From Candidatus Omnitrophota bacterium (GTDB taxonomy: Bacteria; Omnitrophota; Gorgyraeia; Gorgyraeales; Gorgyraeaceae): DNA of 58,357 nucleotides. This document shows, in pieces, positions 3,819-53,421 of this stretch. Each line of letters opens with the position of its first letter. Position 1 is the stretch's first letter. The stretch is taken from positions 1 through 58,357 of the forward strand of contig JAHIPS010000081.1 of NCBI GenBank assembly GCA_018902915.1. The letters run 5' to 3'. A program made the position numbers and the translations under genes. The notes below the pieces were generated by a model that ran no database searches, was not told the origin of the DNA, and saw nothing but the letters and a program-made list of their open reading frames with translations.

Positions 3819-3873
3819 CCCAGAGTGGGTAGATGCGTAGGCTACCCACTCTGGGTAGCCTACGCATCTACCC
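3819..3873. repeat. interleaved inverted repeats (A-B-A'-B' arrangement)
   Basis: 3819-3832 pairs with 3842-3855 (14 bp). 3827-3844 pairs with 3856-3873 (18 bp). The two perfect stems share nucleotides. Confidence 0.8.
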
Positions 3874-3882
3874 ATAGGTTAT

Positions 3883-17977: not shown

Positions 17978-17987
17978 GGTGATTACA

Positions 17988-19214: not shown

Positions 19215-19224
19215 AGGAGGTAAT

Positions 19225-20333: not shown

Positions 20334-20339
20334 ACTTGT

Positions 20340-20448
20340 CCCCCCTGTTTTCTTTGTTTTCATCCCTAGAAATCGCGAATGCGATTTCAGGGATTAAATC
20401 CCGGAAATTCTCCGAATTTCACGGGACAAAGAAAACAAAGAAGGGGGG
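20340..20448. repeat. C6...G6 nested-hairpin element, copy A (outer stem plus two internal hairpins)
   Basis: C6 at 20340-20345 and G6 at 20443-20448. The outer stem TGTTTTCTTTGT/ACAAAGAAAACA is 12 bp. The inner hairpins are at 20364-20392 and 20400-20425. Confidence 0.85.
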
Positions 20449-20545
20449 ATAATTCGCACCTTCATAGAAGTTAACCAGAGAAGATGTAGTTACGAAAATC
20501 AAAGATTTTCATAACTACAGTGCTCATTAAAAAAAGGAGGAGGAC

Positions 20546-20785
20546 ATGCCAAAACTCATTGTACATCTAATATATCCACAGAAATTAATCAAAGAACCTG
20601 TAATCTACACCATGGCTAAAAAATATGATGTAATCCCGAATATCAGAAGGGCCAAGGTCACAGAGGAAATAGGCGAGATGACACTGGAACTCAACGGCAC
20701 AAAGGAAAACCTTGAGGCCGGCAGAAAGTATTTAGAAAAGACAGGAGTCAAAGTCGAACCAGTCGTAGGAGATATTGTTGAATAA
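20546..20785 (+). CDS. NIL-domain protein
   Basis: 79 aa resembling the MetN C-terminal NIL domain (IVHLIYPQKLIKEPVIY...ANIRRAKV-like pattern). Strong AGGAGGAGG RBS. Confidence 0.65.
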   Translation: MPKLIVHLIYPQKLIKEPVIYTMAKKYDVIPNIRRAKVTEEIGEMTLELNGTKENLEAGRKYLEKTGVKVEPVVGDIVE

Positions 20786-21707
20786 GAGAAAATTGTTGTT
20801 AGGTTGTTTTATTTTTTTAGCGGGAATCTCTTTTGTCGGTTGCAACCGCATGGAAAGCCTGGAGAAGATAGATCTAAGCGATACGGTAGAGTTAGAAGAG
20901 ATAAAATCCCTTCAAAGGCCTGAGATTAATATATGCGTAGGCTCTATGATTACGCCAGAAGAAGGCTACGCATATTACAAGAGACTGCTGGATTATATCG
21001 GGCAGAAACTGCACCTGAAAATAAATTTTGTTGAAAAAAGGACTTATAGAGAAGTGAACTCTTCTTTAAAAAATGGCAATATTGATGTGGCATTTGTATG
21101 TGGCGGGCCGTATGTAATGGGTCATGATGAGTTTGGCTTGGAACTTTTAACTGCTCCAGTGGTAAATGGCAAGCCATTATATTACTCTTATGTTATTGTT
21201 GGAAAGGACAGTAAGATTAATGACCTTCATGGATTAAAGGGAAAGACATTTGCCTTTGTGGACCCGATATCCAATACAGGCAAATTGATCCCTACCTATA
21301 TGTTATATGAATTAGGAGAGACCCCTCAGAGTTTTTTCAAGGAATACTCGTATACCTATGGCCATGACAGATCAATCAAGGCCGTGGCTCAGGGCATAGT
21401 TAATGGGGCAGCTGTTGACAGTCTTATATGGGACTATATGGATAAAAATGGCAGCATCTATACCCAAAAGACAAGTATAATCAAGGTTTCCGAGCCCTAT
21501 GGTATTCCTCCGGTAGTGGTGCGGCCAGGGCTGGATGAGGGCCTAAAAGCAAAAATAAAAGATATTCTGTTGAATATGCATAATAACGAAGAAGGAAAAG
21601 AGATACTTAAGGGCATGTTCATTGATAGATTCATCGAGATAGACGATTCCAGCTATGATACAATAAGACACGTCAGGGAGAGTGTTATAAAAAGAGATCC
21701 TGATTAG
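20775..21707 (+). CDS. PhnD-like (phosphate/phosphonate-type) periplasmic binding lipoprotein
   Basis: TTG start, lipobox FVGC, and PhnD-like GNIDVAFVCGGPYV and FAFVDPISNTG. Confidence 0.7.
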   Translation: MLNKRKLLLGCFIFLAGISFVGCNRMESLEKIDLSDTVELEEIKSLQRPEINICVGSMITPEEGYAYYKRLLDYIGQKLHLKINFVEKRTYREVNSSLKNGNIDVAFVCGGPYVMGHDEFGLELLTAPVVNGKPLYYSYVIVGKDSKINDLHGLKGKTFAFVDPISNTGKLIPTYMLYELGETPQSFFKEYSYTYGHDRSIKAVAQGIVNGAAVDSLIWDYMDKNGSIYTQKTSIIKVSEPYGIPPVVVRPGLDEGLKAKIKDILLNMHNNEEGKEILKGMFIDRFIEIDDSSYDTIRHVRESVIKRDPD

Positions 21708-21716
21708 AGGTAACTT

Positions 21717-23072
21717 GTGAAGAGCATACGGTCAAAACTTATTTTCTGGGTCGCGGTATTGTTTATATTTATAGGCCTGTCTATATATCTGCCTCTTTCG
21801 ATCATACTGCCGGAGAAAATTACGTCCCAGGTCATTAAAAGGGATGTGGATATTGCGAAATTCCTCTCCAATGAAACGAAGAGTCTTTTGCTACTCGACG
21901 ACAAAATTGCACTTTCAATACTCCTGCATGATAATCTGGATAGATTAGAGGATGTGCAGTATTTATTTGTTCGCGGTCCTGAGGAAAAAATAATATCCCA
22001 TACATTTAATAAAGGATTTCCAAAAGGACTTTTGTCATTTAATCCAGGTTCATATCCGCATAGCGTGAAAGGGTTTTTAAGCAATAACAGGCGTCTTTAC
22101 GACATAGCTATACCGATATTAGAAGGAGAGCTGGGAACCCTTCATATGGGCATTTCTTTAGAGTCTGGCAAAAAGGATATCGCGGAGATTGCAAAGATAA
22201 ATTATTATGTAGCGATTGTTATTCTTATAGGTCTAGGCATAGGCATCGTTGTATTTTTAATCATAGGGATTTTATTTTCAAACCAGATCATAAGATTGAA
22301 AAACTTCGCTTCCAGGATCGGAGGCGGGGATTTAGAGGCAAAGATCGACATAAAATCAAAGGACGAGATAGGGGAATTGACAACGGCATTTAATGAAATG
22401 GTCGGGCACTTAAAGGAGAACATACAGGAAATCAAGAGACTAAATACAGTGGAAGAACGTAACAGGATCGCCCTTGACCTGCACGATGGTTGCGCGCAGG
22501 ACCTGGCCAATATTATAAAAAGGATCGAGCTCAGCGAGAGACTTTATAAGATCGACCCTGCGAAGGCTATCGAGGAGCTGGCGTTATTAAGAGAAAGCAC
22601 AAAGGACCTTTTAAACAGGACGCGTCAGGTGATATTTGATCTCAAGTCGCCAGAAGAGACAGATTTTAATATAGTGGATAATTTAAATAGTTATCTCATA
22701 GAGTATAAGAAAAGTAACAACATAGATGTTAATCTAAATATCTCCGGCTCAATAGATGGTATCGTGAACAAAAAATCAGTTTTTTATATCATTCGAGAGG
22801 CGCTTGCCAATGTAAAGAAGCATAGCATGGCAAGAAAAGTGGACCTGAGTTTAGTGGCAAATAATGGCAGCAACCTAAAGATATTTATCAAGGATGACGG
22901 AAAGGGTTTTAATGTAAATCGCACAGAACTATCTGGTTCAAGTTCTGGCAAGTGGGGCCTTGCAGGTATGCGCCAGAGGGCAAGTTCTTTAGGCGGGACA
23001 TTTGTTATTGAGTCTGTACCCGAACAAGGTACAATGGTTTCTATAGATATCCCTCTTAAGGAGAGGAGTTAG
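21717..23072 (+). CDS. sensor histidine kinase (periplasmic domain-TM-HAMP-HisKA_3-HATPase)
   Basis: GTG start. H-box LDLHDGCAQDL, N-box REALANVKKHS, DDGKGF, and GLAGMRQRASSLGG. Confidence 0.85.
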   Translation: MKSIRSKLIFWVAVLFIFIGLSIYLPLSIILPEKITSQVIKRDVDIAKFLSNETKSLLLLDDKIALSILLHDNLDRLEDVQYLFVRGPEEKIISHTFNKGFPKGLLSFNPGSYPHSVKGFLSNNRRLYDIAIPILEGELGTLHMGISLESGKKDIAEIAKINYYVAIVILIGLGIGIVVFLIIGILFSNQIIRLKNFASRIGGGDLEAKIDIKSKDEIGELTTAFNEMVGHLKENIQEIKRLNTVEERNRIALDLHDGCAQDLANIIKRIELSERLYKIDPAKAIEELALLRESTKDLLNRTRQVIFDLKSPEETDFNIVDNLNSYLIEYKKSNNIDVNLNISGSIDGIVNKKSVFYIIREALANVKKHSMARKVDLSLVANNGSNLKIFIKDDGKGFNVNRTELSGSSSGKWGLAGMRQRASSLGGTFVIESVPEQGTMVSIDIPLKERS

Positions 23073-23074
23073 AT

Positions 23075-23728
23075 ATGTCAGATACTATAAGAGTATTTTT
23101 GTGCGATGATCATACGTTGTTTCGGCAGGGCATAAGGAAACTATTAACATTAGAAAATGATATCAAGGTAGTAGGCGAAGCAGATAATGGTCTGGATATG
23201 ATCCCGATGCTGAAGAAAAAAGGGCCTGATGTGATACTGCTGGATATTGGCATGCCTAAAATGGATGGGGTTACTGCTACCTATAAGGTTAAAAAACTCA
23301 TGCCGCATTTGGAAATCATCATCCTCACGGTGTATGAAGACGAGCCGCACATCTTTGAGGCAATTAAGGCAGGCGCAAAGGGATATTTATTAAAGGACGT
23401 TTCCATAGATGACCTTTTAAAGGCGATCCGCAGGGTCTATAAAGGCGAGGCCTTGATTCAGCCTGTAATAGCAGCCAAGGTCTTAAAAGAGTTTGCCATG
23501 CTTGATAAGAGGAAGATAAAAGAAGGCGACAGGTTTTATAACGAGCTGACAGAAAGAGAAAAAGAGATCCTGCGCTTGATCGCACTGGGAGGAGCCAATA
23601 AAGAAATAGCCAAAAAACTCGGAATCGTAGAAAAGACTGTAAAAAACCATATTTCTAATATCTTTCAAACCCTCCATGTCAATAACCGCACCAAGGCCGC
23701 CCTGTACGTCATAGACAAGAAGCTATAG
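23075..23728 (+). CDS. NarL/FixJ-family response regulator
   Basis: Receiver domain (LCDDH...DIGMPKMDG) plus LuxR HTH (LTEREKEILRLIALGGANKEIAKKLGIVEKTVKNHISNIF). Confidence 0.9.
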   Translation: MSDTIRVFLCDDHTLFRQGIRKLLTLENDIKVVGEADNGLDMIPMLKKKGPDVILLDIGMPKMDGVTATYKVKKLMPHLEIIILTVYEDEPHIFEAIKAGAKGYLLKDVSIDDLLKAIRRVYKGEALIQPVIAAKVLKEFAMLDKRKIKEGDRFYNELTEREKEILRLIALGGANKEIAKKLGIVEKTVKNHISNIFQTLHVNNRTKAALYVIDKKL

Positions 23729-23857
23729 GACTAAAGTCCCAGAGGAAGCTAGGTCTTTATATTTTGGCTAAATGGGACCTTTGCCTCTTGTTGGTATTCT
23801 TTATATATATACAATATAGCTAATATTCCTATTTTATATTAGGGAGAGTAGTGTTTC

Positions 23858-24511
23858 ATGAAGTGGTTTATCTCACATAATACAATACGATCATCTTTTC
23901 AACTAACACTTGAGAAAGAGTGTGGCGAGAAAGTCAGCCACTGTTATCAGTGCGGCAAGTGCTCTGCAGGATGTCCTATTGCTTTCCAGATGGATTATCT
24001 CCCAAACCAGATTATACGAATGACCCAGCTCGGCATGGAACAACAGGTACTGTCCAGCAGGACCATATGGCTTTGTGCATCATGTCTTACCTGCACTGTC
24101 AGATGCCCTCGCGAGATAGATATAGCAGAGATAATGGATTATCTAAGGCGGCAGGCGTATAAAAAAGGCATTATCCCTGTGGAAGAGACCGAGATACCTC
24201 TTTTCAATAAGATTTTTTTGAGAAATATCGAACTTTTTGGGAGACTTTATGAGATGGGCCTGATAGGCATGTTTAATATGTTGAGCGGGGAGTTTTTTAA
24301 AGACGTGTTTCTGGCCCCAAAGATGTTTCTTAAACAAAAGATCAGTATCTTCCCTCCAAGGGTTAAAAACATAAAAGAGACAAGGGCTATTTTTAAAAGA
24401 TCAGGAAAATTAGGCAAGGCGCACAGAGACAAGCTTCTTAATCCAAGGCTTTTATTTTTGAATCTATCCAGAAAGATCATAGGAAAGATAGCTAAGCGAG
24501 ATAATTCATGA
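23858..24511 (+). CDS. hdrC: heterodisulfide reductase subunit C-like
   Basis: CYQCGKCSAGCP and CASCLTCTVRCP. Confidence 0.8.
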   Translation: MKWFISHNTIRSSFQLTLEKECGEKVSHCYQCGKCSAGCPIAFQMDYLPNQIIRMTQLGMEQQVLSSRTIWLCASCLTCTVRCPREIDIAEIMDYLRRQAYKKGIIPVEETEIPLFNKIFLRNIELFGRLYEMGLIGMFNMLSGEFFKDVFLAPKMFLKQKISIFPPRVKNIKETRAIFKRSGKLGKAHRDKLLNPRLLFLNLSRKIIGKIAKRDNS

Positions 24512-27775: not shown

Positions 27776-28631
27776 CCAGATAAAAACTAAGGCAAAAGAG
27801 TTATTAAAGACGAAAAAAGTAGACATAGTTATTGGTTATAAGAAGGCCAGTGACAGGATAGGCGCTATACCTGCTTTTATTGATAAGGAAGGGGATATTG
27901 ATAAATTAATATGGGATGGGTATTGCGTCTATAATCTTAGCAATTATCTAAAAGACTTTCCAGGCAAAAAAATAGGAATAGTGACAAAGGGTTGCGACGC
28001 AAAGTCAATGACAGTGTTATTGCAGGAAAATCAATTGAAGAGGGAGGACATATTTATAATCGGCATCGAGTGTTCAGGCATAGTTGATGAAAAGAGGAAA
28101 GGCGGGGATATAGCCTATGATGAAAGATGCAAGGGATGTAAGCCCGCGACGCCGCCCATTTACGATGTTTTGATAAAAGAGGAAGAAAAGAAACAGGCCC
28201 CAAGATTGGAACAGGATCCTTATGAGAGCGTGCGTAAATTAGAGACAAAATCTATCGAAGAAAAGTTTAAGTTCTGGCAGGATGAATTTTCAAGATGTAT
28301 CCGTTGTTATGCCTGTAGACAGATCTGTCCCTTATGTTATTGCCCGAGATGCGTGGCTGAGCAGACGCAGCCTGCCTGGTTTTCAAAGGCGGTTTCTGTA
28401 GAGGGCAATTTCAGCTGGAACGTGAACCGCGCGATGCATCTGGCTGGAAGATGTATTGACTGCGGAGAATGCGAAAGGGCCTGCCCTGTGGGGATCCCCT
28501 TAAGAGATATAAATAAAAAGATAGAAAAGGATGTAAAAGAGCTTTTTAGTTATGAGGCAGGAGTAGACACTGAACAGAAACCTTTATTCAGCTCGTTTGA
28601 CAAAAACGACCCAGAGGATTTTATCAAGTAA
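27768..28631 (+). CDS. Fe-S subunit (FlxC-like)
   Basis: C-terminal CIRCYACRQICPLCYCPRC and CIDCGECERACP. Its position follows mvhD. Confidence 0.6.
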   Translation: MIDQIKTKAKELLKTKKVDIVIGYKKASDRIGAIPAFIDKEGDIDKLIWDGYCVYNLSNYLKDFPGKKIGIVTKGCDAKSMTVLLQENQLKREDIFIIGIECSGIVDEKRKGGDIAYDERCKGCKPATPPIYDVLIKEEEKKQAPRLEQDPYESVRKLETKSIEEKFKFWQDEFSRCIRCYACRQICPLCYCPRCVAEQTQPAWFSKAVSVEGNFSWNVNRAMHLAGRCIDCGECERACPVGIPLRDINKKIEKDVKELFSYEAGVDTEQKPLFSSFDKNDPEDFIK

Positions 28632-28694
28632 GTCCGCTTACAGCGGACTTACTTGATCCCCCCTGTTTAGTTTTGTGAAGCAAAACTAGGGGGG
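28623..28694. repeat. two hairpins: a perfect 15-bp stem spanning the stop codon (28623-28657) and C6...G6 element copy E (28658-28694)
   Basis: ATCAAGTAAGTCCGC-ttaca-GCGGACTTACTTGAT, followed by CCCCCCTGTTTAGTTTTG-tgaag-CAAAACTAGGGGGG. Confidence 0.85.
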
Positions 28695-29685: not shown

Positions 29686-30510
29686 ATGAAAAATATTTAT
29701 TTACCTCATATAGCTGAAATAGTCGACGTAAAGCAGGAGACATCTGATATAAAGACGTTCACGCTCAGGTTCAAGGATAAGGCAGTTGGGAAGGCCTTTA
29801 CCTATAAACCAGGCCAGTTTGTGGAGTTCTCGATATTTGGCGAGGGTGAATCGCCTTTCTGCATCTCGAATTCGCCCACGAGAGATTCCATAGAATGCAG
29901 TGTCAAGAAAATGGGCAAGGTCACCCAGGTCTTGCATGAGATGGATATAGGCGATGAGGTAGGCATAAGAGGGCCTTACGGCAATGGCTTTCCCCTTGAT
30001 GAATTAAAAGGCAAGAATCTTTTATTTGTTGCCGGCGGAATAGGGCTCGCGCCCTTACGCTCCTTAATAAATTATTGTTTTGATAATAGAAAAGACTATA
30101 AGACTATTACTATCGTGAATGGCGCGCGCACGTCAAAAGACCTTGTCTATAAGGATGAATATAAGACATGGGAAAAGGCAAAGGATGCGCACCTACATTT
30201 AACTGTTGACTGCCAGGAGGATAACTGGACATGCATGGTAGGCGTGGTGCCAAAGATCCTGGAAGAGATAAAACCAACCTGTAAGGACAGCATAGCTATT
30301 GTCTGCGGCCCGCCAATAATGATAAAGTTCACGCTGCCTGTTCTTATGAGATTGGGTTTTTGCCCCGAGTCTATTCTTACTACGTTAGAGATGAAGATGA
30401 AATGCGGCCTGGGTAAATGCGGCAGATGTAATATCGGAAATCTATATATTTGCAAGGATGGACCTGTTTTTAGTTATGCTCAATTAAATGGTATGAACTA
30501 TGATCATTAA
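29686..30510 (+). CDS. FAD/NAD(P)H-binding [2Fe-2S] oxidoreductase subunit (FlxA / AsrB / PyrK-like)
   Basis: FNR-like fold (YKPGQFVEF, LLFVAGGIGLAPL) and C-terminal CGLGKCGRCNIG. Confidence 0.75.
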   Translation: MKNIYLPHIAEIVDVKQETSDIKTFTLRFKDKAVGKAFTYKPGQFVEFSIFGEGESPFCISNSPTRDSIECSVKKMGKVTQVLHEMDIGDEVGIRGPYGNGFPLDELKGKNLLFVAGGIGLAPLRSLINYCFDNRKDYKTITIVNGARTSKDLVYKDEYKTWEKAKDAHLHLTVDCQEDNWTCMVGVVPKILEEIKPTCKDSIAIVCGPPIMIKFTLPVLMRLGFCPESILTTLEMKMKCGLGKCGRCNIGNLYICKDGPVFSYAQLNGMNYDH

Positions 30511-31416
30511 GATTTGGTTAAAAGCCATAAGGGCGCCATTTTTTACCGCGACCATAATCCCGGTTACTCTGGGCTCAGTGATTGCCTGGCATGATACCAA
30601 TGATTTTATGTGGCTGAGATTCTGGCTTACGATGCTTGGTGTGCTGTTTGTGCACACAGGGACAAATCTAGCCAATGATTATTTTGACCATGTCTCTGGA
30701 TGCGATGAGGCAAATTCTACGCCTACGCCTTTTAGCGGAGGAAGCAGGGTGATCCAGAATGGACTTATTGCTCCCAGGAAGATTTTATATGTCTCCCTGG
30801 TCTCATTTATTATTGGCAGCGCAATCGGCCTTTATCTAAATCATTTGTGTAAAGGGAATATAATCCTCGTCTTAGGTATGATCGGTGTATCTTTAGGATT
30901 TTTTATAGCGTCAAGTCATTCCGTATAGGATACGGGGGCTTCGGAGAGATGGCAGTAGGGATTGGCTTTGGTCCGCTGATAGTATTGGGCTCATATTATG
31001 TACAAGCGCAGATTTTACCTTTCAGGATATTCCTGATATCAATCCCTGTCGGCATTTTAATTGCCCTGGTAGTATTCATAAACGAATTTCCAGATTACCT
31101 TGCTGATAAGTCAGCAGGGAAAAGGACTATCGTGGTCAGGCTGGGGAAGAAAAACGCCATGGTTTTATATCATATTCTGTTAGTTAGTGTATATGCGGCC
31201 ATAGTATTTTTAGTAATATTTAAATTTTTACCAGTAGCGTCTTTGATCGTTTTTTTAAGCCTTCCTTTAACTATAAAGGCATTCACAGTGTCCAGGAAAA
31301 ATTTTGACAAGGTTTACGAATTATTACCAGCAAATGCCTCGACTATAGGGCTGCATATGGCAATAGGTGCACTATTATCCATAGGCATAGCGTTAGACAG
31401 GATCTTATGCGCTTAA
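30500..31416 (+). pseudogene. menA: 1,4-dihydroxy-2-naphthoate polyprenyltransferase (UbiA family), split by a frameshift at a T6 run (30899-30904)
   Basis: ORF 30500-30928 gives WLKAIRAPFFTA...NLANDYFD. After the T6 run, the other frame reads YSVKSFRIGYGGFGEMAVGIGFGPL and continues into ORF 30949-31416. One extra T restores a single ORF. Confidence 0.75.
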
Positions 31417-34165: not shown

Positions 34166-34200
34166 TCAAGGTAGGCAAGGCTTGGCCTTGCCTACCTTGA
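34166..34200. repeat. perfect 16-bp stem / 3-nt loop hairpin containing GTAGG
   Basis: TCAAGGTAGGCAAGGC-ttg-GCCTTGCCTACCTTGA, between the porin gene and the NrfD-type gene. Confidence 0.8.
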
Positions 34201-44226: not shown

Positions 44227-46215
44227 ATGTTGTTTAAGGAACTACAAGAGCGCGCAAAAAAAGAGTGGGAAGGGATAAAACAAAGTGAACCCCTGGTGAT
44301 CTCAGTGGGTGCTGCTACTTGCGGTAGGTCTGCGGGCGCGCTATCTGTGCTTCAAGCCTTCAAAGATGAATTAAATACTCGTCGTATTCGTGCCCGCATC
44401 GTTGAGGTAGGATGTATCGGCCTATGTTACAGAGAGCCCATTGTTACTATTACTAAATCCGGACATCCTGGCATATGTTATGGCAATATAACGCCTCCAA
44501 AGGTTATAGAACTCATCGAAGGTCATATTATCAATGACAAGGTCTTAGAAGATTATGCGCTGGGTACTATCGGAGAGGGCAGCATTGACAAAGTCCCTAG
44601 CCTCTTTCAGATCCCAGTGCTTAAGCCGCAAGTGAGACGTATCATGAATAATTTCGGGTTCATTGACCCTACAAATATAAATCATTATATTGCTAATGGC
44701 GGCTATAGTGGCCTGGCAAAGGCCCAAAAGATGAAACCAGGACAAATAATTAATGAACTAAAGAAATCCGGCTTGAGAGGCAGGGGTGGCGCTGGTTTTC
44801 CTACCTGGCAAAAATGGCAGTTTTGCTTAAATGCAAAAGGTAGACATAGATATATTATCTGCAATGCTGACGAGGGCGACCCAGGCGCTTTTATGAACAG
44901 GTCTCTTCTTGAAAGCGACCCGCATTCTGTATTGGAGGGACTACTTATAGCTGGTTATGCTATTGGAGCAGAAAAAGGCTATATCTACTGTCGCGCAGAA
45001 TATCCCTTAGCATTGGATAGACTAAAAATAGCTCTTAAAGAGATGGAAAAAAACATGTTTTCAGGAAACAATTGTGATTCCGGGTTTAATTTTCATATAG
45101 AGATAAAGCAGGGCGCAGGCGCTTTTGTTTGCGGCGAGGAGACCGCTCTTATTGCCTCTATCGAAGGCAAACGTGGCATGCCTAACCCCCGGCCACCTTT
45201 TCCTGCAATATCCGGGCTATGGGGAGAGCCTACTATTATCAATAACGTGGAGACCCTGGCGTCTGTAGCTTCTATATTTAAGAATAATGCTGATTGGTTT
45301 GGCCAATATGGTACGCAAAAAAGCAAGGGTACTAAGACTTTTGCGTTAGCAGGCAAGATAAGGCGCACTGGTCTTATTGAAGTGCCGTTAGGTGTTACGC
45401 TAAGAGAGGTAATATACGAGATAGGCGGCGGGATTCAGAACGATAAAAAATTCAAGGCAGTTCAGACAGGCGGCCCCTCAGGCGGATGCTTACCCGCTTC
45501 TCTTTTAGATGAACCTATTGATTACGAGTCACTCGCTCAAGCCGGCTCAATTATGGGTTCCGGCGGCATGGTGGTAATGGACGAAGATACCTGCATGGTG
45601 GATATTGCCCGCTATTTTCTTGATTTTACGCAAAAAGAATCCTGCGGAAAATGTGTTCCCTGCAGGCTCGGCACAAAACAGATGCTTGATATTCTTAATG
45701 ATATAACTCAAGGAAAAAGTAGATCTGAAGATATTGATCTTCTTCTCGAATTAGCTGAAGGGATAAAGGCAGGTTCACTCTGTGGTCTCGGCCAGACAGC
45801 GCCAAATACAGTACTTACTACTATTCGTTATTTTCGGGATGAGTACGAGGCGCATATAAAACATAGGAAATGTCCGGCAGGTGTTTGTAAAGCACTGATC
45901 CGCTATTCTATTGACGAAGCTAAGTGTACTGGATGCGGTGTTTGTAAAAAAGAGTGTCCAGGGGACGCCATCTCGCGGTATAGGAAAGTATATCCCCCCT
46001 TGTTTCCTTCCCCGCAGATTTGCTGGTGCAAATCTAATCGCGGGGACAGGTCGGAAACAAAACAGGGGGGACGGCGAAAATCGCTTAAAAATTATCGCCG
46101 CAAGGCGATTTTCTTGGGAGAAAAGAAAAAACCTCATAAGATAGATCAGGCAACCTGTATTAAATGCGGGGTCTGTAAAGAGGTCTGCAGATTTGAGGCT
46201 GTGAAGATAGAATAA
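44227..46215 (+). CDS. NuoF-like NAD(H)/FMN subunit with C-terminal 2x[4Fe-4S] domain, carrying a 141-nt in-frame repeat insertion
   Basis: GLRGRGGAGFPT, NADEGDPGAF, ESCGKCVPCRLG, CTGCGVCKKECP and CIKCGVCKEVC. Confidence 0.85.
   Translation: MLFKELQERAKKEWEGIKQSEPLVISVGAATCGRSAGALSVLQAFKDELNTRRIRARIVEVGCIGLCYREPIVTITKSGHPGICYGNITPPKVIELIEGHIINDKVLEDYALGTIGEGSIDKVPSLFQIPVLKPQVRRIMNNFGFIDPTNINHYIANGGYSGLAKAQKMKPGQIINELKKSGLRGRGGAGFPTWQKWQFCLNAKGRHRYIICNADEGDPGAFMNRSLLESDPHSVLEGLLIAGYAIGAEKGYIYCRAEYPLALDRLKIALKEMEKNMFSGNNCDSGFNFHIEIKQGAGAFVCGEETALIASIEGKRGMPNPRPPFPAISGLWGEPTIINNVETLASVASIFKNNADWFGQYGTQKSKGTKTFALAGKIRRTGLIEVPLGVTLREVIYEIGGGIQNDKKFKAVQTGGPSGGCLPASLLDEPIDYESLAQAGSIMGSGGMVVMDEDTCMVDIARYFLDFTQKESCGKCVPCRLGTKQMLDILNDITQGKSRSEDIDLLLELAEGIKAGSLCGLGQTAPNTVLTTIRYFRDEYEAHIKHRKCPAGVCKALIRYSIDEAKCTGCGVCKKECPGDAISRYRKVYPPLFPSPQICWCKSNRGDRSETKQGGRRKSLKNYRRKAIFLGEKKKPHKIDQATCIKCGVCKEVCRFEAVKIE
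45976..46116. repeat. C6...G6 modular element copy C, inserted in frame in the NuoF-like CDS
   Basis: Left flank ATAGGAAAGTATAT (45980-45993), C6 at 45994-45999, inner hairpin CCCCGCAGATTTGC-tggt-GCAAATCTaatcGCGGGG, G6 at 46065-46070, and right module ACGGCGAAAATCGC...GCGATTTTCTTG (46071-46116). Confidence 0.85.
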
Positions 46216-46219
46216 AATA

Positions 46220-46245
46220 GTAGGCCAGGTTTAAACCTGGCCTAC
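46220..46245. repeat. perfect 26-nt palindrome GTAGGCCAGGTTTAAACCTGGCCTAC
   Basis: Read directly. It lies between the NuoF-like stop and the fdhA start. Confidence 0.85.
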
Positions 46246-46249
46246 GGTG

Positions 46250-48964
46250 ATGATTATGATAAAGATAACCATTGATAATATACAAGTAAAAGCTAAAGCA
46301 GGGACGACAATATTAGAAACAGCGCTTGAAAATGATATTTACATCCCGCATCTTTGCTATTACCCTGATCTGAAACCAGTTGGCGCGTGCCGATTGTGTA
46401 TGGTAGAGATCCCTGGAAGAGGGTTAACGATTTCATGCAAGACCTTGGTAGAAAAAGGAATGGTTGTAAGGACAGAAAGCCCCCAGACCAGTAAGGTGCG
46501 GAGAACTGCTGTAGAGCTGCTTATTGTAAATCACCATGCGGATTGTCTTTCCTCCACCAAAGATACTCAGTGTAAATTAAAGGAGATAGCTACTTATGTT
46601 GGCATTGAGGAAGAGCGGTTAAAGCGATTGAGGGCCACGACTAAAACTACTCCTATTGACAGATCCAATCCTTTTTTTGACCGCGAACCTGATAGGTGCG
46701 TACTTTGTGGTATTTGCGTAAGAACCTGTGAAGAGATACAAGGCGCGAGTGCTATAGATTTTGCGTTTAGAAGCTATGACACTACTATTAGTACTTTTGG
46801 AAACAAACCTATCCTGGAATCCAGATGCGAGTCCTGTGGCGAGTGCGTAGTGAGATGTCCTGTAGGCGCATTAAGGCCTAAGGATTACCAAAAGCCTTCC
46901 CGTGAGGTAAAGAGCGTGTGTACCTATTGCGGCGTTGGCTGCGGGATCTACCTGGGCGTCAGGGATAACTCTATTGTTAGTGTACGGGGCAATACTGATA
47001 GCCCTGCAAATGAAGGCAGGCTTTGCGTCAAGGGGCGATTTGGCTATAATTTTGTTAATCACCCTGACCGGTTGACTACGCCCCTTATCAAGAAAAATGG
47101 CAAATTTGTTGAAGCTACATGGACAGAGGCGCTGGAACTTATTGCAAAAAAATTCTCTCTTTATAAAAAGGAGCAGTTTGCTGCTATTGCTTCAGCCAGG
47201 TGCACTAACGAAGAAAACTATCTTGTTCAAAAATTTACCAGGGCGGTAATGGGAACAAATAATGTTGACCACTGCGCGCGGCTTTGCCACGCGCCTACTG
47301 TTGCAGGCCTGGCTCAATCCTTAGGTAGCGGCGCGATGACCAATACCATCAGCGAGATCGGCCTTACCGCATGTATCTTAGCCATAGGCACCAATACCAC
47401 ATCCGCCCACCCTGTAATCGGGCTGCAGGTAAGAAAAGCAGCTAAGCACTCTGCAAAGCTTATCGTGGCCAATCCTAAAGAGATCGACCTTTGTCGCTTC
47501 GCTGATGTATTCATACGACACCGGCCCGGTACTGATATAGCCCTCTTGATGGGTATGATGCGAGTTATTCTCGATGAAGGGCTATATGACTTACCCTTTA
47601 TTGAAAAACGTACCGAGGGTTTCGAGGCCTTTAAGAAGACGCTTTCTAATTTTGACATGGATTTTGTAGAGAAGACAACAGGCGTAGACCGAAAGACGAT
47701 TATTAAAGCAGCCAGGATCTATGCTACCTCTAAACCCAGCACTATTCTATATGCTATGGGTATCTGCCAGCATTCTCATGGCACTGATAATGTACTGGCT
47801 ATCAGTAATCTATCGCTCATCACGGGGAACATCGGCAAGCCCTCATCAGGGGTCAACCCGTTACGGGGGCAGAACAATGTTCAGGGCGCCTGTGATATGG
47901 GATCTTTGCCTAATGTCTATCCCGGTTACCAGAAAGTGGATGACCCTGAGGTAAAAAAGAAATTTGAATCAGCCTGGGGTGTTCCTTTAGATCCATCGCG
48001 CGGGTTGACTCATTTTGAGATATCTGATGCCGCGTATGACAAGAAAATAAAAGCCCTTTATCTTGTCGGTGAAAATCCGATCTTAAGCGAAGCAAATGCC
48101 AGTCATGTCGAAGACGCTATAAAAAGATTGGAATTTTTTGTGGTCCAGGATATATTCCTTACAGAAACCGCTGAATTGGCTGATGTAGTCTTGCCTGCAG
48201 CAAGCTTTGCTGAGAAGGACGGGACTTTCACGAACAGCGAGCGACGCGTTCAGAGGATACATAAGGCAATAGAGCCTGTTGGAAATGCAAAGCCTGACTG
48301 GTGGATCACATGCCAGATCGGTAAAAAACTGGGAGGTAAAGGATTTGATTTTTCAGATCCTGGAGAGATCATGGATGAGATCGCTTCTTTAGTCCCGAAT
48401 TATAAAGGCATATCCTATGATCGGCTGGAAAAAGGGGGACTCCAGTGGCCCTGTCTTGATTATAAACATAAAGGGACACAGATCCTTCACACCGAACGCT
48501 TCGCTACAAAAAGCGGCAAGGCTAAATTTATATCACTTGAATATAGGCCATCACAAGAAATCCCTGATAGCGAGTATCCGCTCGTCCTCACTACTGAGAG
48601 CAGTCTTTACCACTATACCTCAGGCGCTATGACGCGAAGAGTGGATGGCCTTAATATATTAAGGAAGCAGGAACTGGTAGAGATCAACCCGGAAGATGCG
48701 AATAGGCTTGGGATCAGTGATGGCCAGACAGTGCGTATAACTTCCCGGCGGGGCGAGGTGCAGGCTAAAGCAAAGGTAACAGATGTTCCGTTGCCAGGCG
48801 TGATCTCTATGAGCATTCATTTTGCCGAAACAAAGACCAATCTAGTTACCAATGCTGCTTTGGATCCTATATCAAAGACACCTGAGACAAAGGTATGCGC
48901 GGTGAAAGTCTGCCCTGTTAAAAGCTTTAACCACAGAGAACACAGAGGAAAAGATATAGTTTAA
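46250..48964 (+). CDS. fdhA: formate dehydrogenase alpha subunit (NuoG-like N-terminus plus Mo/W-bisPGD), cysteine type
   Basis: 2Fe-2S CYYPDL...CRLC...SC, CVLCGICVRTC, CESCGECVVRCP, CTYCGVGC and active site HCARLCHAPT (Cys at the Sec position). The start could be GTG 46247, ATG 46250 or ATG 46256. Confidence 0.85.
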   Translation: MIMIKITIDNIQVKAKAGTTILETALENDIYIPHLCYYPDLKPVGACRLCMVEIPGRGLTISCKTLVEKGMVVRTESPQTSKVRRTAVELLIVNHHADCLSSTKDTQCKLKEIATYVGIEEERLKRLRATTKTTPIDRSNPFFDREPDRCVLCGICVRTCEEIQGASAIDFAFRSYDTTISTFGNKPILESRCESCGECVVRCPVGALRPKDYQKPSREVKSVCTYCGVGCGIYLGVRDNSIVSVRGNTDSPANEGRLCVKGRFGYNFVNHPDRLTTPLIKKNGKFVEATWTEALELIAKKFSLYKKEQFAAIASARCTNEENYLVQKFTRAVMGTNNVDHCARLCHAPTVAGLAQSLGSGAMTNTISEIGLTACILAIGTNTTSAHPVIGLQVRKAAKHSAKLIVANPKEIDLCRFADVFIRHRPGTDIALLMGMMRVILDEGLYDLPFIEKRTEGFEAFKKTLSNFDMDFVEKTTGVDRKTIIKAARIYATSKPSTILYAMGICQHSHGTDNVLAISNLSLITGNIGKPSSGVNPLRGQNNVQGACDMGSLPNVYPGYQKVDDPEVKKKFESAWGVPLDPSRGLTHFEISDAAYDKKIKALYLVGENPILSEANASHVEDAIKRLEFFVVQDIFLTETAELADVVLPAASFAEKDGTFTNSERRVQRIHKAIEPVGNAKPDWWITCQIGKKLGGKGFDFSDPGEIMDEIASLVPNYKGISYDRLEKGGLQWPCLDYKHKGTQILHTERFATKSGKAKFISLEYRPSQEIPDSEYPLVLTTESSLYHYTSGAMTRRVDGLNILRKQELVEINPEDANRLGISDGQTVRITSRRGEVQAKAKVTDVPLPGVISMSIHFAETKTNLVTNAALDPISKTPETKVCAVKVCPVKSFNHREHRGKDIV

Positions 48965-48968
48965 TATA

Positions 48969-49072
48969 GTAGGAAAGTATATCCCCCTAGATTTACTCCT
49001 TATAGTCGTAAATCTAAGCAGGGGGGACTGCGAAAATTGCAGAAAGTTATTGCCGAGGGCAATTTTCTTGTG
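48969..49072. repeat. C6...G6 modular element copy D
   Basis: Left flank GTAGGAAAGTATAT, then CCCCCTAGATTTAC-loop-GTAAATCTAagcaGGGGGG, and right module ACTGCGAAAATTGC...GGCAATTTTCTTG. Confidence 0.85.
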
Positions 49073-49546
49073 AAGACGATAGTGATATCAGGTAGTCATA
49101 GCAATATTGGCAAGACCTCCGTGGCTGAGGTTATGCTCAGCAGTTTAAATGGCTGGTCAGGGCTCAAGGTAACAACAGTAAAAGAGAAGTCTGGATGCGA
49201 GCGTGGTAGTAATTGTACGGTGTGTTCTGAATTAAAAGATGATTTTGATATTATTACGGATAAAAAGATAATCAACGAGAAAAATACAGACACTGCCCGA
49301 ATGAAAAGCTCAGGCGCGAAGAAAGTAGTTTGGCTCAAGGCGAATACGAGTGGTCTGAAGCAGGGTTTAAAAAAGGCGCTTTACTGTTTGCGGGGTTCGA
49401 AAGGCGTGGTAATCGAAGGGACAAGTGTTTTAAAATATATAAATCCGGATCTGGCAATATATCTAAAGGATGGCGCAACGCGACCGAAACCAAGCGCTAA
49501 ACAGACAGAGAAAAAGGCAGATATAGTTTATGACATTAATAGATAA
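49070..49546 (+). CDS. P-loop NTPase, MobB-like by context (atypical)
   Basis: VISGSHSNIGKTSVAE P-loop, a CERGSNCTVC motif, and location among Moco genes. GTG 49070 is preferred because 49037-49069 is repeat sequence. Both the start and the function are uncertain. Confidence 0.4.
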   Translation: MKTIVISGSHSNIGKTSVAEVMLSSLNGWSGLKVTTVKEKSGCERGSNCTVCSELKDDFDIITDKKIINEKNTDTARMKSSGAKKVVWLKANTSGLKQGLKKALYCLRGSKGVVIEGTSVLKYINPDLAIYLKDGATRPKPSAKQTEKKADIVYDINR

Positions 49547-50516
49547 TTTCAATCGCAGGATAGATTATTTGCGCATCTCAGTCACAGACAGGTGTAACTT
49601 GAGGTGTAAATATTGTATGCCTGCATGTGGTATTGCGAATAAACTTCACAGCGATCTTCTATCATTTGAAGAGATTGCAAAGATTGTGAGGATAGGAGTT
49701 TCTTTAGGTGTAGATAAGGTCCGTCTTACAGGTGGCGAGCCATTAGTGAGGAAGGATATTGTAGGACTTGTGAAGATCTTAGCTAATATAGAAGGCCTAA
49801 AGGATATTTCCATGACAACTAATGGCATTCTCTTAAAGAATTATGCGTCACAACTTAAAAAAGCCGGACTCAAAAGACTAAATATAAGTTTAGACACATT
49901 GCAAGAAGAGAAATATAGAGATATAACAAGGGGAGGAGAATTAAAAGAGGTAAAAGAGGCGATCAAACTTTCTCTAGAAGCAGGATTTCATCCATTAAAG
50001 ATAAACATGCTTCTTTTGGCCGGCATAAATGAGGACGAGATCATTGATTTTTTAAGATTGACGATAAACCTGCCTATACACGTCAGGTTCCTGGAGTTTA
50101 TGCCGACCAAGAATAATGAGTTCTGGCATTCCAGGGAGGATTTTATATCGTATAAAGAGGTAGTGGGTATCTCTAAAGGGTTAGGGCACGTGGAAGACAT
50201 CGATGTTCATGGCAATGGACCGGCAAAAAACTTCAGGATCAAACACGCAAGAGGCACATTTGGATTTATTGCTCCTTTGAGCGAAAGTTTTTGTTCAAGC
50301 TGTAACAGGCTCAGACTTACATCAGATGGATTCTTAAAGGCATGTCTGCATTCAGACCTTAAGATCAATCTAAAAGATCCTATAAGGCGGGGCATGGATG
50401 AAAAAAGTCTTATCCAGCTCATAAACCTGGCAGTAAATACAAAACTAAAAGAACACATTCTTAGCGAGAATCCGATTTCATCATCAGAATATCTGATGTG
50501 TCAGATAGGGGGATAA
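49530..50516 (+). CDS. moaA: GTP 3',8-cyclase
   Basis: RISVTDRCNLRCKYC radical SAM motif and C-terminal CSSCNRLRLTSDG. Confidence 0.9.
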   Translation: MTLIDNFNRRIDYLRISVTDRCNLRCKYCMPACGIANKLHSDLLSFEEIAKIVRIGVSLGVDKVRLTGGEPLVRKDIVGLVKILANIEGLKDISMTTNGILLKNYASQLKKAGLKRLNISLDTLQEEKYRDITRGGELKEVKEAIKLSLEAGFHPLKINMLLLAGINEDEIIDFLRLTINLPIHVRFLEFMPTKNNEFWHSREDFISYKEVVGISKGLGHVEDIDVHGNGPAKNFRIKHARGTFGFIAPLSESFCSSCNRLRLTSDGFLKACLHSDLKINLKDPIRRGMDEKSLIQLINLAVNTKLKEHILSENPISSSEYLMCQIGG

Positions 50517-50520
50517 AGCA

Positions 50521-50979
50521 GTGGACAGTGGCGATATAAGAATGGCGGATATAAGTGAAAAGTCACAGACTAAGAGGATGGCTATTGCGCAGGCAAAGGT
50601 TTTTATGAAAAGGGATACTTTGTCAAAGCTGATCAAGGGTAAGATTCCCAAGGGTAATGTCCTTGCTTGCGCAAATATAGCAGGTATTATGGCTGCTAAG
50701 AAGACGAGTGAGCTTCTTCCCCTGTGCCATCCTTTAGAGATCACTGATGTAAAATTGGAGTTTGATATCGATGAGAAAAAGGCCTGTATATTAGTAAAGG
50801 CAATAGTTTCTGTTCTTGGTAGGACTGGCGTTGAAATGGAGGCATTGACTGCAGCCTCTATTGCATCTCTAACTATCTATGATATGTGTAAGCCGGTGGA
50901 TAAAGATATAGTGATTTCGGATATCATGCTTTTAGAAAAAAGCGGGGGAAAGAGTGGCGCCTATAAAAGGCAGGGTTAA
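50521..50979 (+). CDS. moaC: cyclic pyranopterin monophosphate synthase
   Basis: MADISEKSQTKRMAIA..., KGNVLACANIAGIMAAKKTSELLPLCHPL and TGVEMEALTAAS. GTG start. Confidence 0.85.
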   Translation: MDSGDIRMADISEKSQTKRMAIAQAKVFMKRDTLSKLIKGKIPKGNVLACANIAGIMAAKKTSELLPLCHPLEITDVKLEFDIDEKKACILVKAIVSVLGRTGVEMEALTAASIASLTIYDMCKPVDKDIVISDIMLLEKSGGKSGAYKRQG

Positions 50980-51418
50980 GTCTATCTCCACATCCTCAAA
51001 AAAAGGCTGCAAGAAAAAGAACACGCAGATCGCTGTATTAAAAGAGGATTTTGGTATTGTGGGCGACGCGCATGGAGGAGGCGAGAGACAGGTGAGTTTG
51101 CTCGCAATCGAGTCTATTGAAAAGATGCGAAAAAAAGGCGTGGATGTAACTTCAGGTGATTTTGCAGAAAATATTACAACCTCTGGCATGGACTTGATGA
51201 GCTTAAAACTTGGCTCTCATTTAAAGATAGGTAAATCTGCCTTGTTAGAGATCACGCATATCGGCAAGGTGTGTCATGATAGATGCGAGATCTTTCGTCA
51301 GGTAGGAGACTGTGTCATGCCAAGAGAAGGAATATTCGCAAAGGTCTTAAAAGGAGGCGTTATTAAACCAAGAGATAGAATGGAGGTAGTGAAGCAATGG
51401 AAAAGCCATACACTGTAG
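50954..51418 (+). CDS. MOSC domain protein
   Basis: GIVGDAH...RQVSLL...GDFAENITT...IGKVCH pattern. Confidence 0.7.
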   Translation: MAPIKGRVKSISTSSKKGCKKKNTQIAVLKEDFGIVGDAHGGGERQVSLLAIESIEKMRKKGVDVTSGDFAENITTSGMDLMSLKLGSHLKIGKSALLEITHIGKVCHDRCEIFRQVGDCVMPREGIFAKVLKGGVIKPRDRMEVVKQWKSHTL

Positions 51419-51882
51419 CGGTATTAACGATAAGTGATAAATGTTCTAAAGGTCAGCGTGAGGACGAGAGCGGAAAGATCACCCAGGACCTTATTAAGAA
51501 GCTTCCTGGTGATGTCGTGAAATACGAGATCATCCCTGACGAATCTGAGATGATCAAGGAGCGTATTAAAAATTATTGTGATGAATTGAAGGTAGACCTG
51601 GTCCTTACAAATGGCGGCACTGGGTTTACTACAAGGGATGTTACCCCTGAGGCCACAAAAGAGGTTATTGAGAAAGAGATCCCTGGCATTCCTGAAGCGA
51701 TGCGCACGCTTTGTCTCGGCCTCACCAAAAGGGCAATGCTTTCAAGAGGCATCTCGGGCATTAGAGGAAAGACATTGATACTTAATTTACCAGGCAGCAC
51801 CAGGGGCGCTAAAGAATCCTTGGAAGCTATACTTGATGGCCTGGCTCATGGCCTGGATATGGTTATCGGAAGGGAACACTAA
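51397..51882 (+). CDS. moaB: MoaB/MogA-family molybdopterin adenylyltransferase-like protein
   Basis: VAVLTISDK, LVLTNGGTGFTTRDVTPEAT and NLPGSTRGA. Confidence 0.8.
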   Translation: MEKPYTVAVLTISDKCSKGQREDESGKITQDLIKKLPGDVVKYEIIPDESEMIKERIKNYCDELKVDLVLTNGGTGFTTRDVTPEATKEVIEKEIPGIPEAMRTLCLGLTKRAMLSRGISGIRGKTLILNLPGSTRGAKESLEAILDGLAHGLDMVIGREH

Positions 51883-52404
51883 GTGATTCTACTAAATCTT
51901 TTCCTTTCATTCCTTAGAATAGGATTATTCGCAATAGGCGGGGCGTATTCGTTCCTGCCCCTCATTGAAAAAGAAGTTGTTGTGAAGTATGAGTGGCTGA
52001 CAAAGAGTGAGTTTCTGGATGTGTTGGGGATGGTGAAGATATTGCCAGGTGCTATATCAATCAAGTTTGCCACCTATACTGGTTTTAAGATCGCAGGCAT
52101 CCCCGGCGCTATTATAGCGAACCTCGGCAACATCCTTGGCCCAGCCAGCCTGATTATCATTGCGTCCAGCATATACGCTAAATACAAGGACGTCCCCAGT
52201 GTCCAGGGCGCGTTCAACGTGATCCAACTCGTGATTTTTGCCATGATCCTCGCCGTAGCTTTCCAGCTAGTAAGCTCATCCCAACTCCTGTCACTGCGAA
52301 ACATACTGATTATCGTTGTCTCGTTCCTGCTCTTTTCCTTTACCAAGATTCACCCCGCTATCATAATCATCGCCGCCGCTCTTCTCGGCGCTTTTTTGAA
52401 ATAA
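51883..52404 (+). CDS. short-chain chromate-transporter (CHR) family protein
   Basis: FLRIGLFAIGGAYSFLPLIEKEVV...LPGAISIKFATYTG. GTG start abuts the moaB stop. Confidence 0.7.
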   Translation: MILLNLFLSFLRIGLFAIGGAYSFLPLIEKEVVVKYEWLTKSEFLDVLGMVKILPGAISIKFATYTGFKIAGIPGAIIANLGNILGPASLIIIASSIYAKYKDVPSVQGAFNVIQLVIFAMILAVAFQLVSSSQLLSLRNILIIVVSFLLFSFTKIHPAIIIIAAALLGAFLK

Positions 52405-52520
52405 TATAAACCTGGCGGCCCAGGGTATTCATTCCAAGAAAAAATCAAAAACTTCCCTTGACCCGCCAAAGAGCTGGAGAGGTCTACACAAAATGTTCAA
52501 AGAACATTTTGCTTGATAGC

Positions 52521-52788
52521 ATAGGAAATTATATGCCCCCCTGTTTTGTTTCGCTTCACCCCTAGAAATTGCAAAGCAATTTCAGGGACTTTAGTCCTGG
52601 GAATTCTTCGAATTCCTCAGGGCTCAACAAAACAAAGCAGGCCTGTCCCCCCTGCTTTGTTTTTGACCTGTCCCCGCGATTAGATTTGCGCCAGCAAATC
52701 TGCGGGGAAAAAACAAGGGGGGAGGGGACTGCGAAAAATCTCTTTGAGTCACCGAGCTCGCTGAAAGGCGGGCGAGATTTTTCTTGAG
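52521..52788. repeat. composite C6...G6 modular element (copies B1 and B2 plus right module) in a 430-bp gene-free interval
   Basis: Left flank ATAGGAAATTATATG. B1 has C6 at 52536-52541 and inner hairpins at 52560-52587 and 52596-52621. B2 has C6 at 52647-52652 and G6 at 52717-52722. The right module is ACTGCGAAAAATCTC...GAGATTTTTCTTGAG, ending at 52788. Confidence 0.85.
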
Positions 52789-52833
52789 TTTGTTGTTTTT
52801 AGGAGTATAATACAGAAAAAGAAAGGGGGATGT

Positions 52834-53283
52834 ATGTGGAAAAGGTTAATTGTTTTACTGCTCGTGGTTTCTTTTGGTTTGATGGCGAGCTATGTTTATG
52901 CAGGAGGGTGTGAAAAAGGAAAAAGCGACAAGCATAATATGGAGGACAAGGTATTTCACAAGGCCATGATGCTGATTAAAAATCAGGAAGAATTAGGTCT
53001 TACAGACGAACAAATAAAGAAGGTAAAGGATCTGAAGATTGCTACTAAGAAGGACGTGATAAAGAAAAAGGCTGATATTGAGATACTTGGTCTGGATATA
53101 AAGGCAGCCTTGTGGGATGATGTAGTAGATTTAAACGCACTAAATGCATTGATTGACACGAAGTATGAGCTTAAAAAAGAAAAGACAAAGTCTTTGGTAG
53201 CTGCATATGTGGAGCTCAAAGGCGTTTTGACAGAAGAACAAAAGACAAAACTCAAAGATCTTTGCAAAAAAGATAAAAAGTAA
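52834..53283 (+). CDS. periplasmic CpxP/Spy/ZraP-like (LTxxQ) protein
   Basis: Signal peptide, LGLTDEQIKKVKDL and LTEEQKTKLKDL, otherwise helical and Lys/Glu-rich. Confidence 0.7.
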   Translation: MWKRLIVLLLVVSFGLMASYVYAGGCEKGKSDKHNMEDKVFHKAMMLIKNQEELGLTDEQIKKVKDLKIATKKDVIKKKADIEILGLDIKAALWDDVVDLNALNALIDTKYELKKEKTKSLVAAYVELKGVLTEEQKTKLKDLCKKDKK

Positions 53284-53289
53284 AACTTA

Positions 53290-53325
53290 GTAACAGAGGA
53301 AGGTTTAAAAACCTTCCTCTGTTAC
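53290..53325 (+). terminator. 17-bp-stem hairpin after the CpxP-like gene
   Basis: GTAACAGAGGAAGGTTT-aa-AAACCTTCCTCTGTTAC. No clear T-tract follows. Confidence 0.5.
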
Positions 53326-53421
53326 TGTAAATAATCCTGCCTGACTTAACTATTCTGATCTATCTGAAAATCTAAAATTTTTTCTATATTCTTATCGACA
53401 GTTTCTTGACGCCGGTATATA

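Follow-up and report, generated by a model that had tools for sequence, protein, structure and literature searches.

Among the described systems closest to the repeats reported here, IS608 lacks inverted repeats and does not duplicate its target. Its insertion site is 3′ of a TTAC that stays outside the element, 19 nt ahead of the left hairpin; its right cut lies inside the element 10 nt after the right hairpin, and it targets the lagging-strand template (PMC3201880). IS91 uses a CTTG/GTTC target, with rare CTCG and TTTG, makes no duplication, carries subterminal palindromes and forms a single-stranded circle; one of its ends bears one palindrome or two, and at the other a palindrome borders the CTCG cleavage site (PMC13181058). 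For the palindromic elements of Rickettsia and the QMITEs of Coxiella, both small palindromic repeats, in-frame insertions into protein genes are described, as are C-termini and stop codons supplied by the repeat (PMC5896051; PMC3733652). REPs with a GTAG tag have been described in the PVC superphylum, and REPs can also lie within genes (PMC3733652).

The window analysed here is a stretch of 58,357 nt with about 42% G+C, in which nearly every gene lies on the + strand and the GC skew is positive throughout. It comes from Omnitrophota, a phylum of uncultured bacteria, and homologues of its NuoF and MoeB place it there. The hairpin repeats in it were originally predicted as one family of C6...G6 cores (copies A, B1, B2, C, D, E and a mini-copy). 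The best reading is that they are a family of small mobile DNA elements without genes, not described before, in Omnitrophota. In the way it works this family is like IS200/IS605-derived or IS91-like miniatures; in looks it resembles REP, BIME, BOX and NIME repeats, and its behaviour inside genes is that of the Rickettsia and Coxiella elements.

With the IS200/IS605 PATEs (IS608), the composite represented by B, C and D, termed type 1, shares the lack of terminal inverted repeats and target duplication, subterminal hairpins at both ends and a fixed strand orientation. As in IS608 the target tetranucleotide stays outside the element, the left distance being 18 nt here against 19 and the right distance 7 nt here against 10. 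The target, however, is CTTG-like instead of TTAC or TTGAT, the left hairpin is variable in size and content and may be doubled or flipped, and no TnpA or TnpB partner was found among the window ORFs and the loci examined. The likeness to IS91 lies in the CTTG target with minor CTCG and TTTG and a T always at position 2, the lack of duplication and a head-to-tail junction. Compared by description, the target in both adjoins the palindrome-bearing end, and the palindrome of the other end borders a CTCG/GTTC-type cleavage site. TTTA, frequent among the flanks here, is a difference from IS91, and we know of no miniature derivatives of IS91 established as a family. Palindromic modules arranged in mosaics, placed after stop codons and reused in varied order and orientation recall REP/BIME, NIME and BOX, and GTAGG palindromes occur in the same genome, but the type-1 polarity is fixed, its ends are specific and non-palindromic, and its hairpin foot does not bear the GTAG tag. 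In-frame insertion and new C-termini and stop codons are shared with the Rickettsia palindromic elements and the Coxiella QMITEs, whereas the host phylum is another and type-1 insertion is target-specific without duplication. We know of no sequence relation between type-1 elements and those of Rickettsia and Coxiella.

Anatomy and spread of the type-1 composite

Inspection of the sequence at each site bore out the positions given for the predicted copies. The + strand of the window has five C6 runs (20340, 28658, 45994, 52536 and 52647), each opening one of the listed cores, and a C5 run at 48983 opens core D. The arrangement CCCCCC-N20-50-GGGGGG occurs once in the window, as copy E, against 0.01 expected by chance. 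B1, D and the mini-copy deviate from the C6...G6 form of the core. B1 has no G6 and terminates in CAGG at 52641, with CCTGT joining it to B2; D has C5 and is without the TGTTT/AAACA arms; the mini-copy has at 1220–1245 only C4 and G3, enclosing a GTCCGCC hairpin. The flanks of A and the mini-copy consist of another module pair (type 2) than those of B, C and D. What spreads in the case of B, C and D is the whole composite of left end, core and right end, and not the C6...G6 core.

The type-1 composite spans 96–271 nt and has no coding capacity. Its left end is unpaired and 18–19 nt long, comprising CAGTA or ATAGCA and then TAGGAAAKTATAT; the left flank had been recognised as a module, and its true start is 5–6 nt further left, at the CAGTA or ATAGCA. 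The core, CCCCC(C)TTGTTTTCT...AGAAAACAARCAGGGGG(G), is clamped by a C-run and a G-run, and one or two such cores with swappable inner hairpins are present. The right module, AC.GCGAAAATCGC...AGTT-ATCGCC-gaa-GGCGAT-TTTCTTG, is a hairpin terminating in TTTTCTTG. The shortest element is 96 nt (loci L002 and L021). In longer elements the core loop holds a 42-nt inner hairpin or a double hairpin, and a second, flipped core gives B and L019 a common two-core layout. This modular, nestable, C/G-clamped left hairpin is the unusual trait of the family. The exact left flank TAGGAAAKTATAT is found in the window in B, C and D only, and profile HMMs built for each end and for the inner hairpin (E 1e-7 to 1e-18) match only these copies in the window, showing that the flank modules predicted to be common to the three are real.

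Copy B, 271 nt (52516–52786, + strand), contains B1 and B2 and is defined by sequence and by HMM matches to the left end, the inner hairpin (− strand) and the right end. A target-like CTTG (52512–52515) precedes its left end ATAGCATAGGAAATTATAT (52516–52534). The core B1 with two inner hairpins (52536–52641), the CCTGT joint (52642–52646), the flipped inner-hairpin core B2 (52647–52722), an AGGGG linker (52723–52727) and the right-end hairpin module ending in TTTTTCTTG (52728–52786) follow. Copy C, 141 nt or 47 codons (45976–46116, + strand), is delimited by homologues, an empty site, a blastn break and HMM matches, and consists of a left end (45976–45993), a core (45994–46070) and a right end (46071–46116). 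Cores B2 and C are reverse complements of each other, and the HMM of the inner hairpin accordingly matches 46010–46051 on the + strand in copy C and 52666–52707 on the − strand in copy B, both with E about 1e-15 to 1e-16. Copy D (48964–49070, + strand), defined by sequence and by comparison with L001 and L077, has a left end (48964–48982), a short core (48983–49026) of C5...G6 around a AGATTTAC hairpin, and a right end (49027–49070).

Folded as single strands, the copies are far more stable than shuffled sequence (z −4.4 to −9.3), and the + and − strands fold equally well. Across copies, 98.6% of cells are paired in the right-end long stem and 94.5% in the right-end inner stem, each with two pairs changed on both sides. 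The inner hairpin is paired in 100% of cells and has three such pairs, a number reached in 1/500 shuffles. The stems therefore stay complementary between copies, as the original prediction held, with few compensatory changes, and the ends are common to the copies as well. Low variation together with paired stems means that the stems are kept, by selection on DNA or on RNA, which are not separable here. The reverse complement of the left end (− strand of 45981–45993, 48970–48982 and 52522–52534) reads TATACT or TATAAT, a good −10 box facing the upstream gene with a weak −35. A reading of the left end as a sigma-70 promoter was rejected: on the + strand the −35-like and −10-like pieces are just 10–11 nt apart, and on the − strand TATAAT/TATACT is perfect and the −35 poor.

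A search for the left flank followed by a C-run, made once in each collection, gave 22 loci in genomes and 49 in metagenomes. A locus was taken as a true copy when a G-run and then the right module followed, and the remaining matches were chance. Further copies were thus found in other assemblies, with 18 unique complete copies, about nine truncated ones and 26 unique left flanks. Neither outcome that would have told against the original prediction, a lack of further copies or a lack of shared ends and covariation, was obtained. The hosts are five Omnitrophota MAGs, one MAG labelled Planctomycetia (five contigs) and metagenome contigs, nine of them from one sample, Ga0265296; copies are numerous in the Ga0265296 population and in SRP256446_co1_219. 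At least 10 copies lie at contig ends. Since the family is abundant enough to break assemblies, its recognition should aid MAG assembly and annotation; the annotation errors concern genes that are split or extended, start codons wrongly assigned and spurious ORFs called across elements. No type-1 copy is present in the relatives L001, L077 and L078 (48 kb in total). A scan of viral contigs gave chance matches only, and a search of a plasmid collection gave no match. Rfam has no match at gathering score in the window and none at E ≤ 1 over 45900–52900, and a full-text literature search found no paper describing small repeats in Omnitrophota.

Two related loci are built differently. In the MAG labelled Planctomycetia, L013:1–165 is a two-core copy whose second inner hairpin is broken by unrelated sequence with another hairpin repeat (...cattgcgagccccgaaggggcgaagcaatc...), which may be a nested insertion. 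At L017:5530–5601 a GGAAAGT-loop-ACTTTCC hairpin replaces the C/G-clamped core and is followed by a normal right-end module and then a ribosome-binding site.

Insertion sites, target and orientation

The gene contexts predicted for the copies are correct: they lie after moeB, flxC, fdhA and chrA, in the NuoF-like gene and over the MobB-like start. Syntenic relatives used for comparison were L001 (GCA_042570105.1), L077 (GCA_018824235.1) and the metagenome contigs L078, L079 and L076.

Copy C is in frame and stop-free, between both C-terminal 4Fe-4S Cys motifs (ferredoxin domain) of the NuoF-like gene, and its 47 residues are absent from six NuoF homologues. The site reads ATCTCA|GGAGAAAAG in L001 and ATCTCG(CGGTATAGG...TTTTCTTG)GGAGAAAAG in the window, with the element in brackets. 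The blastn alignment stops exactly at 45975/46117, and the empty site has one CTCA, leaving an ambiguity of at most 1 nt. The exact empty site and the blastn break thus demonstrate a clean insertion with no duplication. A second in-frame copy, of 138 nt, is in ybeY on a metagenome contig (L027). Its ORF matches Pfam YbeY (E 3e-30) and has 53 residues in place of 5 in solved YbeY structures. The nuoF and ybeY copies both begin on a codon boundary, are a multiple of 3 nt long and use the common frame (R/Q)YRK(V/L)YPPLF...KQGGRRKS...AIFL, which argues, from the reading frame, that the in-frame copies are probably translated rather than removed. A protein search for more in-frame insertions with the 47-residue copy C peptide gave no candidate.

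Copy D and the A region are absent from the syntenic relatives, which are 80–96% identical. Copy D separates fdhA from the mobB-like gene, and these genes overlap (ATGA) in L001 and L077; the window has 150 nt (48921–49070) at this site against 5 nt in both relatives. The last G of copy D and the flanking TG form a new GTG start of mobB (49070–49072). Comparison with L077 and L001 shows an extra 43 nt, present in the window only, upstream of the D left end (48921–48963, + strand). This stretch contains the direct repeat CACAGAG-AA-CACAGAG, provides the final 14 codons and the stop of fdhA, and is of unexplained origin. With 43 extra nt and 5 ancestral nt missing, the D site is not a clean paste. 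Within fdhA, the region around the active-site Cys codon (..HCARLCHAPTVAG..), window 47282–47340, gives a sub-threshold SECIS_3 match (33.6 bits, E 1e-4), which may be the remnant of a selenocysteine insertion element in a formate dehydrogenase of the Cys type.

The tetranucleotide directly 5′ of the element is CTTG in 12, TTTA in 7, TTTG in 3 and CTCG in 2 copies, or 24 of the 26 unique left flanks. These four tetranucleotides have a background of 2.2% per position (P about 1e-30), and the two flanks without a target motif are those of L017 and L038. The right terminus of the element is CTTG always, whatever the left tetranucleotide, and the two differ in 12/24 copies. The constancy of the right CTTG while the left tetranucleotide varies shows that no target is duplicated. 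Set against the reverse-complemented right end (CAAGAAAATCGC...), the left end (CAGTATAGGAAAK...) agrees with it in CA alone, and the element therefore has no terminal inverted repeats. In L054 a right end is joined straight to the next left end, head to tail (...TTTTCTTG|CAGTATAGG). This junction and the empty site of copy C fix the type-1 boundary, placing the left cut site 18 nt 5′ of the left hairpin foot and the right cut 7 nt 3′ of the right hairpin foot.

MITE- or REP-like mobile DNA had been one of the predicted options. Mobility is borne out by the empty orthologous sites, the related copies in many Omnitrophota assemblies, often breaking contigs, and the in-frame insertions in nuoF and ybeY. 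The elements are small, non-coding, multi-copy and insertion polymorphic, as a classical MITE would be, but the absence of terminal inverted repeats and target duplication means that they are not classical MITEs.

The top strand of the element is the G-rich strand in 16/16 loci and is co-oriented with most ORFs in 15 of them. Because the G-rich strand is also the coding strand in 15/16 loci, the strand bias is confounded and could reflect transcription rather than replication. In L004, L019, L024 and copy B (promoter region 52784–52811), a promoter reappears once the two flanks are joined: (Y)TTG|ACA or AGT, 16–17 nt, TAnnnT. An equal right-hand −35/−10 arrangement is seen in L017, whose left flank is without the motif. 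The terminal CTTG with a flanking ACA or AGT makes a −35 box, 16–17 nt upstream of a −10 box, so that these insertions lie inside promoters that are not destroyed. By rebuilding its own target, the element can sit in a −35 box, between overlapping genes, and in frame in nuoF and ybeY. The family offers a clean case, found in nature, of insertion that is target-specific and leaves no duplication. Covariation between guide and target of the IS608 kind was looked for and not seen, as the G/T variants at the left end are not matched by the tetranucleotide in the flank. The repeats were also considered as attC-like and this was rejected, since GTTRRRY fits one right flank only.

Type-2 composites and loose hairpin modules

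Copy A lies in a type-2 composite, a 239-nt insertion (20292–20530, + strand) recognised by comparison with L076–L079. On the + strand it has a left module of a GTCCGCC hairpin and CTGAACTTGT (20292–20339), the C6...G6 core A with two inner hairpins (20340–20448) and a right module, ATAATTCGCAC...hairpin...GTGCTCATT (20449–20528). The composite provides the final residues and the stop codon of MoeB; the gap between moeB and the following NIL gene is 3–4 nt in L076 (96% MoeB identity), L078 and L079. The type-2 mini-copy (1220–1290, + strand) is defined by sequence and by its right module, which is common to the A region and L077. It consists of a C4-GTCCGCC hairpin-G3 (1220–1245), ATAAATTCGCAATT (1246–1259), a hairpin (1260–1281) and GTGCTCATT (1282–1290), and on its 3′ side stand an A-run, a Shine-Dalgarno-like sequence and an ATG. 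The flanks of A and the mini-copy thus consist of a left region with a GTCCGCC hairpin and a right module, ATWAATTCGCA-hairpin-GTGCTCATT. At the A site L077 has identical flank modules, but its core and second hairpin are unrelated to those of the window. Such a change of core within unchanged flanks points to recombination or cassette exchange at this site too.

Between window 17978–24068 and L078, nucleotide identity is about 82% left of the A insertion and about 95% from about 20.7 kb on, a step which suggests, from the alignment, a possible boundary of recombination or transfer no more than a few hundred bases from the A element. A 462-residue MoeB (P0121; L075:1137–2525, ENA contig) was considered as a case of element insertion and rejected, as it has instead an exact internal duplication of about 190 residues, probably an assembly artefact.

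Copy E (28623–28694, + strand; sequence and fold) is a palindrome followed by a solo core. The palindrome (28623–28657), perfect over 15 bp, includes the final codons and stop of the Fer4 gene upstream and terminates in CTTGAT, and the CCCCCC...GGGGGG core stands alone at 28658–28694. Solo right ends were found at L017:5556 and L054:138, and a solo inner hairpin at L002:4871. The latter belongs to three chained AGATT(T/A)...-type hairpins at L002:4840–4940 (and L042:1–130), with no left- or right-end modules near.

The (G)TCCGCC-loop-GGCGGA(C) sequence is a separate hairpin family beside or inside the elements. It occurs in the window at 1225–1240, 1264–1278, 20307–20322 and 28633–28648, in the core of L044 and in the flanks of L050 and L002. 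At 1213 and 28629 this hairpin comes after AAGTAAG, which contains the stop codon of the upstream gene. A further set consists of perfect palindromes with stems of 11–23 bp directly after stop codons, most of them GTAGG/CCTAC (2166–2204, 3125–3162, 3826–3874, 34166–34200, 46220–46245 and 53289–53326). The GTAGGCCAGGTttaaACCTGGCCTAC palindrome at 46220, between nuoF and fdhA, is present again in the flank of the L024 element. These post-stop palindromes look like GTAG-tagged REPs, a resemblance that hints at a RAYT-type enzyme in the genome.

Mechanism and alternative explanations

Insertion polymorphism, exact boundaries, the lack of terminal inverted repeats and target duplication, the flank motif, the strand bias and the hairpins are directly supported for the type-1 elements. 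These properties fit HUH single-strand transposons. By this analogy we infer a single-strand HUH mechanism and its enzyme, and hold, with somewhat better than even confidence, that B, C and D are a non-autonomous element moved as single-stranded DNA by an HUH transposase in trans. The enzyme, IS200/IS605-like or an IS91-like rolling-circle type, would recognise both subterminal hairpins. It would cut on the left 3′ of a flank YTTR (mostly CTTG), 18 nt before the left hairpin, and on the right 3′ of the element's own terminal CTTG. The strand would then be pasted 3′ of another YTTR, without duplication and always in a single orientation. Copies would survive where harm is small, just upstream of a ribosome-binding site, in a −35 box rebuilt by the CTTG, or in an in-frame protein loop.

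No transposase domain, including Y1_Tnp, was found among the window ORFs scanned. Queries with approximate sequences of IS608 TnpA, IS200 TnpA and E. coli RAYT gave only chance tblastn matches in about 0.4 Mb of loci; the best of these, in L019, proved to be a NuoD-like gene. No large unexplained ORF adjoins any copy. Every left end found has a right end straight after the core, so that no full-length parent element was seen. Should the partner enzyme be found, the short ends and the CTTG-type target would make a compact substrate for HUH single-strand transposition in a new phylum.

A different origin is conceivable in which the repeats are REP/BIME-like mosaics, their hairpin modules cut and rejoined by a domesticated single-copy Y1 RAYT (TnpA-REP) and then kept for host functions. 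Type-1 modules found solo, flipped and in varied combinations would suit this reading, as would at least five perfect GTAGG palindromes just after stops (3125, 3826, 34166, 46220 and the L027 flank), with related ones at 2166 and 53289 and one found again in L024. However, no GTAG is present at the foot of the type-1 left hairpin, TAGG being 13 nt upstream. The order and orientation of the parts are constant in 17/18 copies across distant genomes, which one transposing unit fits better than free assembly does. No RAYT gene was found with the approximate E. coli RAYT query, and the Y1_Tnp domain is absent from the window ORFs scanned. We consider such mosaics unlikely.

The same low probability is given to functional RNA modules, acting as an intercistronic terminator or attenuator, an mRNA stabiliser or a translation-coupling cassette, for which spread would be secondary. 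The co-orientation with genes in 15/16 loci agrees with a role in RNA, and so does the right-end hairpin and T-run of B, C and D, a predicted terminator by a simple consensus scan. Of the measurable copies, 7/11 end at most 31 nt before the next start codon, and elements provide stop codons (fdhA, moeB), the mobB GTG start and a rebuilt −35 box. Yet a terminator would harm the genes that hold the in-frame nuoF and ybeY copies, and in close relatives the corresponding sites function with no element there, the genes overlapping or lying 3–4 nt apart. The best-conserved part is the unpaired 18-nt left end, the strands fold equally well, Rfam has no match, and there is too little variation to tell selection on RNA from that on DNA.

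Less probable still is that the hairpins are exchangeable cassettes, which a single-strand recombination system inserts, swaps and inverts at hairpin loops or fixed pads. The unrelated cores between identical moeB-pad flanks in two relatives, the inner hairpins in outer loops and the flipped cores could come from such a system, and a hairpin-in-hairpin mobile system of this sort would be without a described equivalent. Hardly credible is a classical DDE-type MITE with a 4-bp CTTG target duplication: left flank and right terminus are both CTTG in 12/26 copies, but 12 others have TTTA, TTTG or CTCG on the left with the right still CTTG, the copy C empty site has a single CTCA, the ends are not mutual inverted repeats, and the mismatched flank pairs largely refute it.

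A separate observation in the window concerns a UbiA prenyltransferase (30500–31416) that is read as two ORFs, covering profile positions 2–95 and 120–236. The second frame continues upstream past the first stop, indicating a frameshift, a pseudogene or a sequencing error near 30900–30925.
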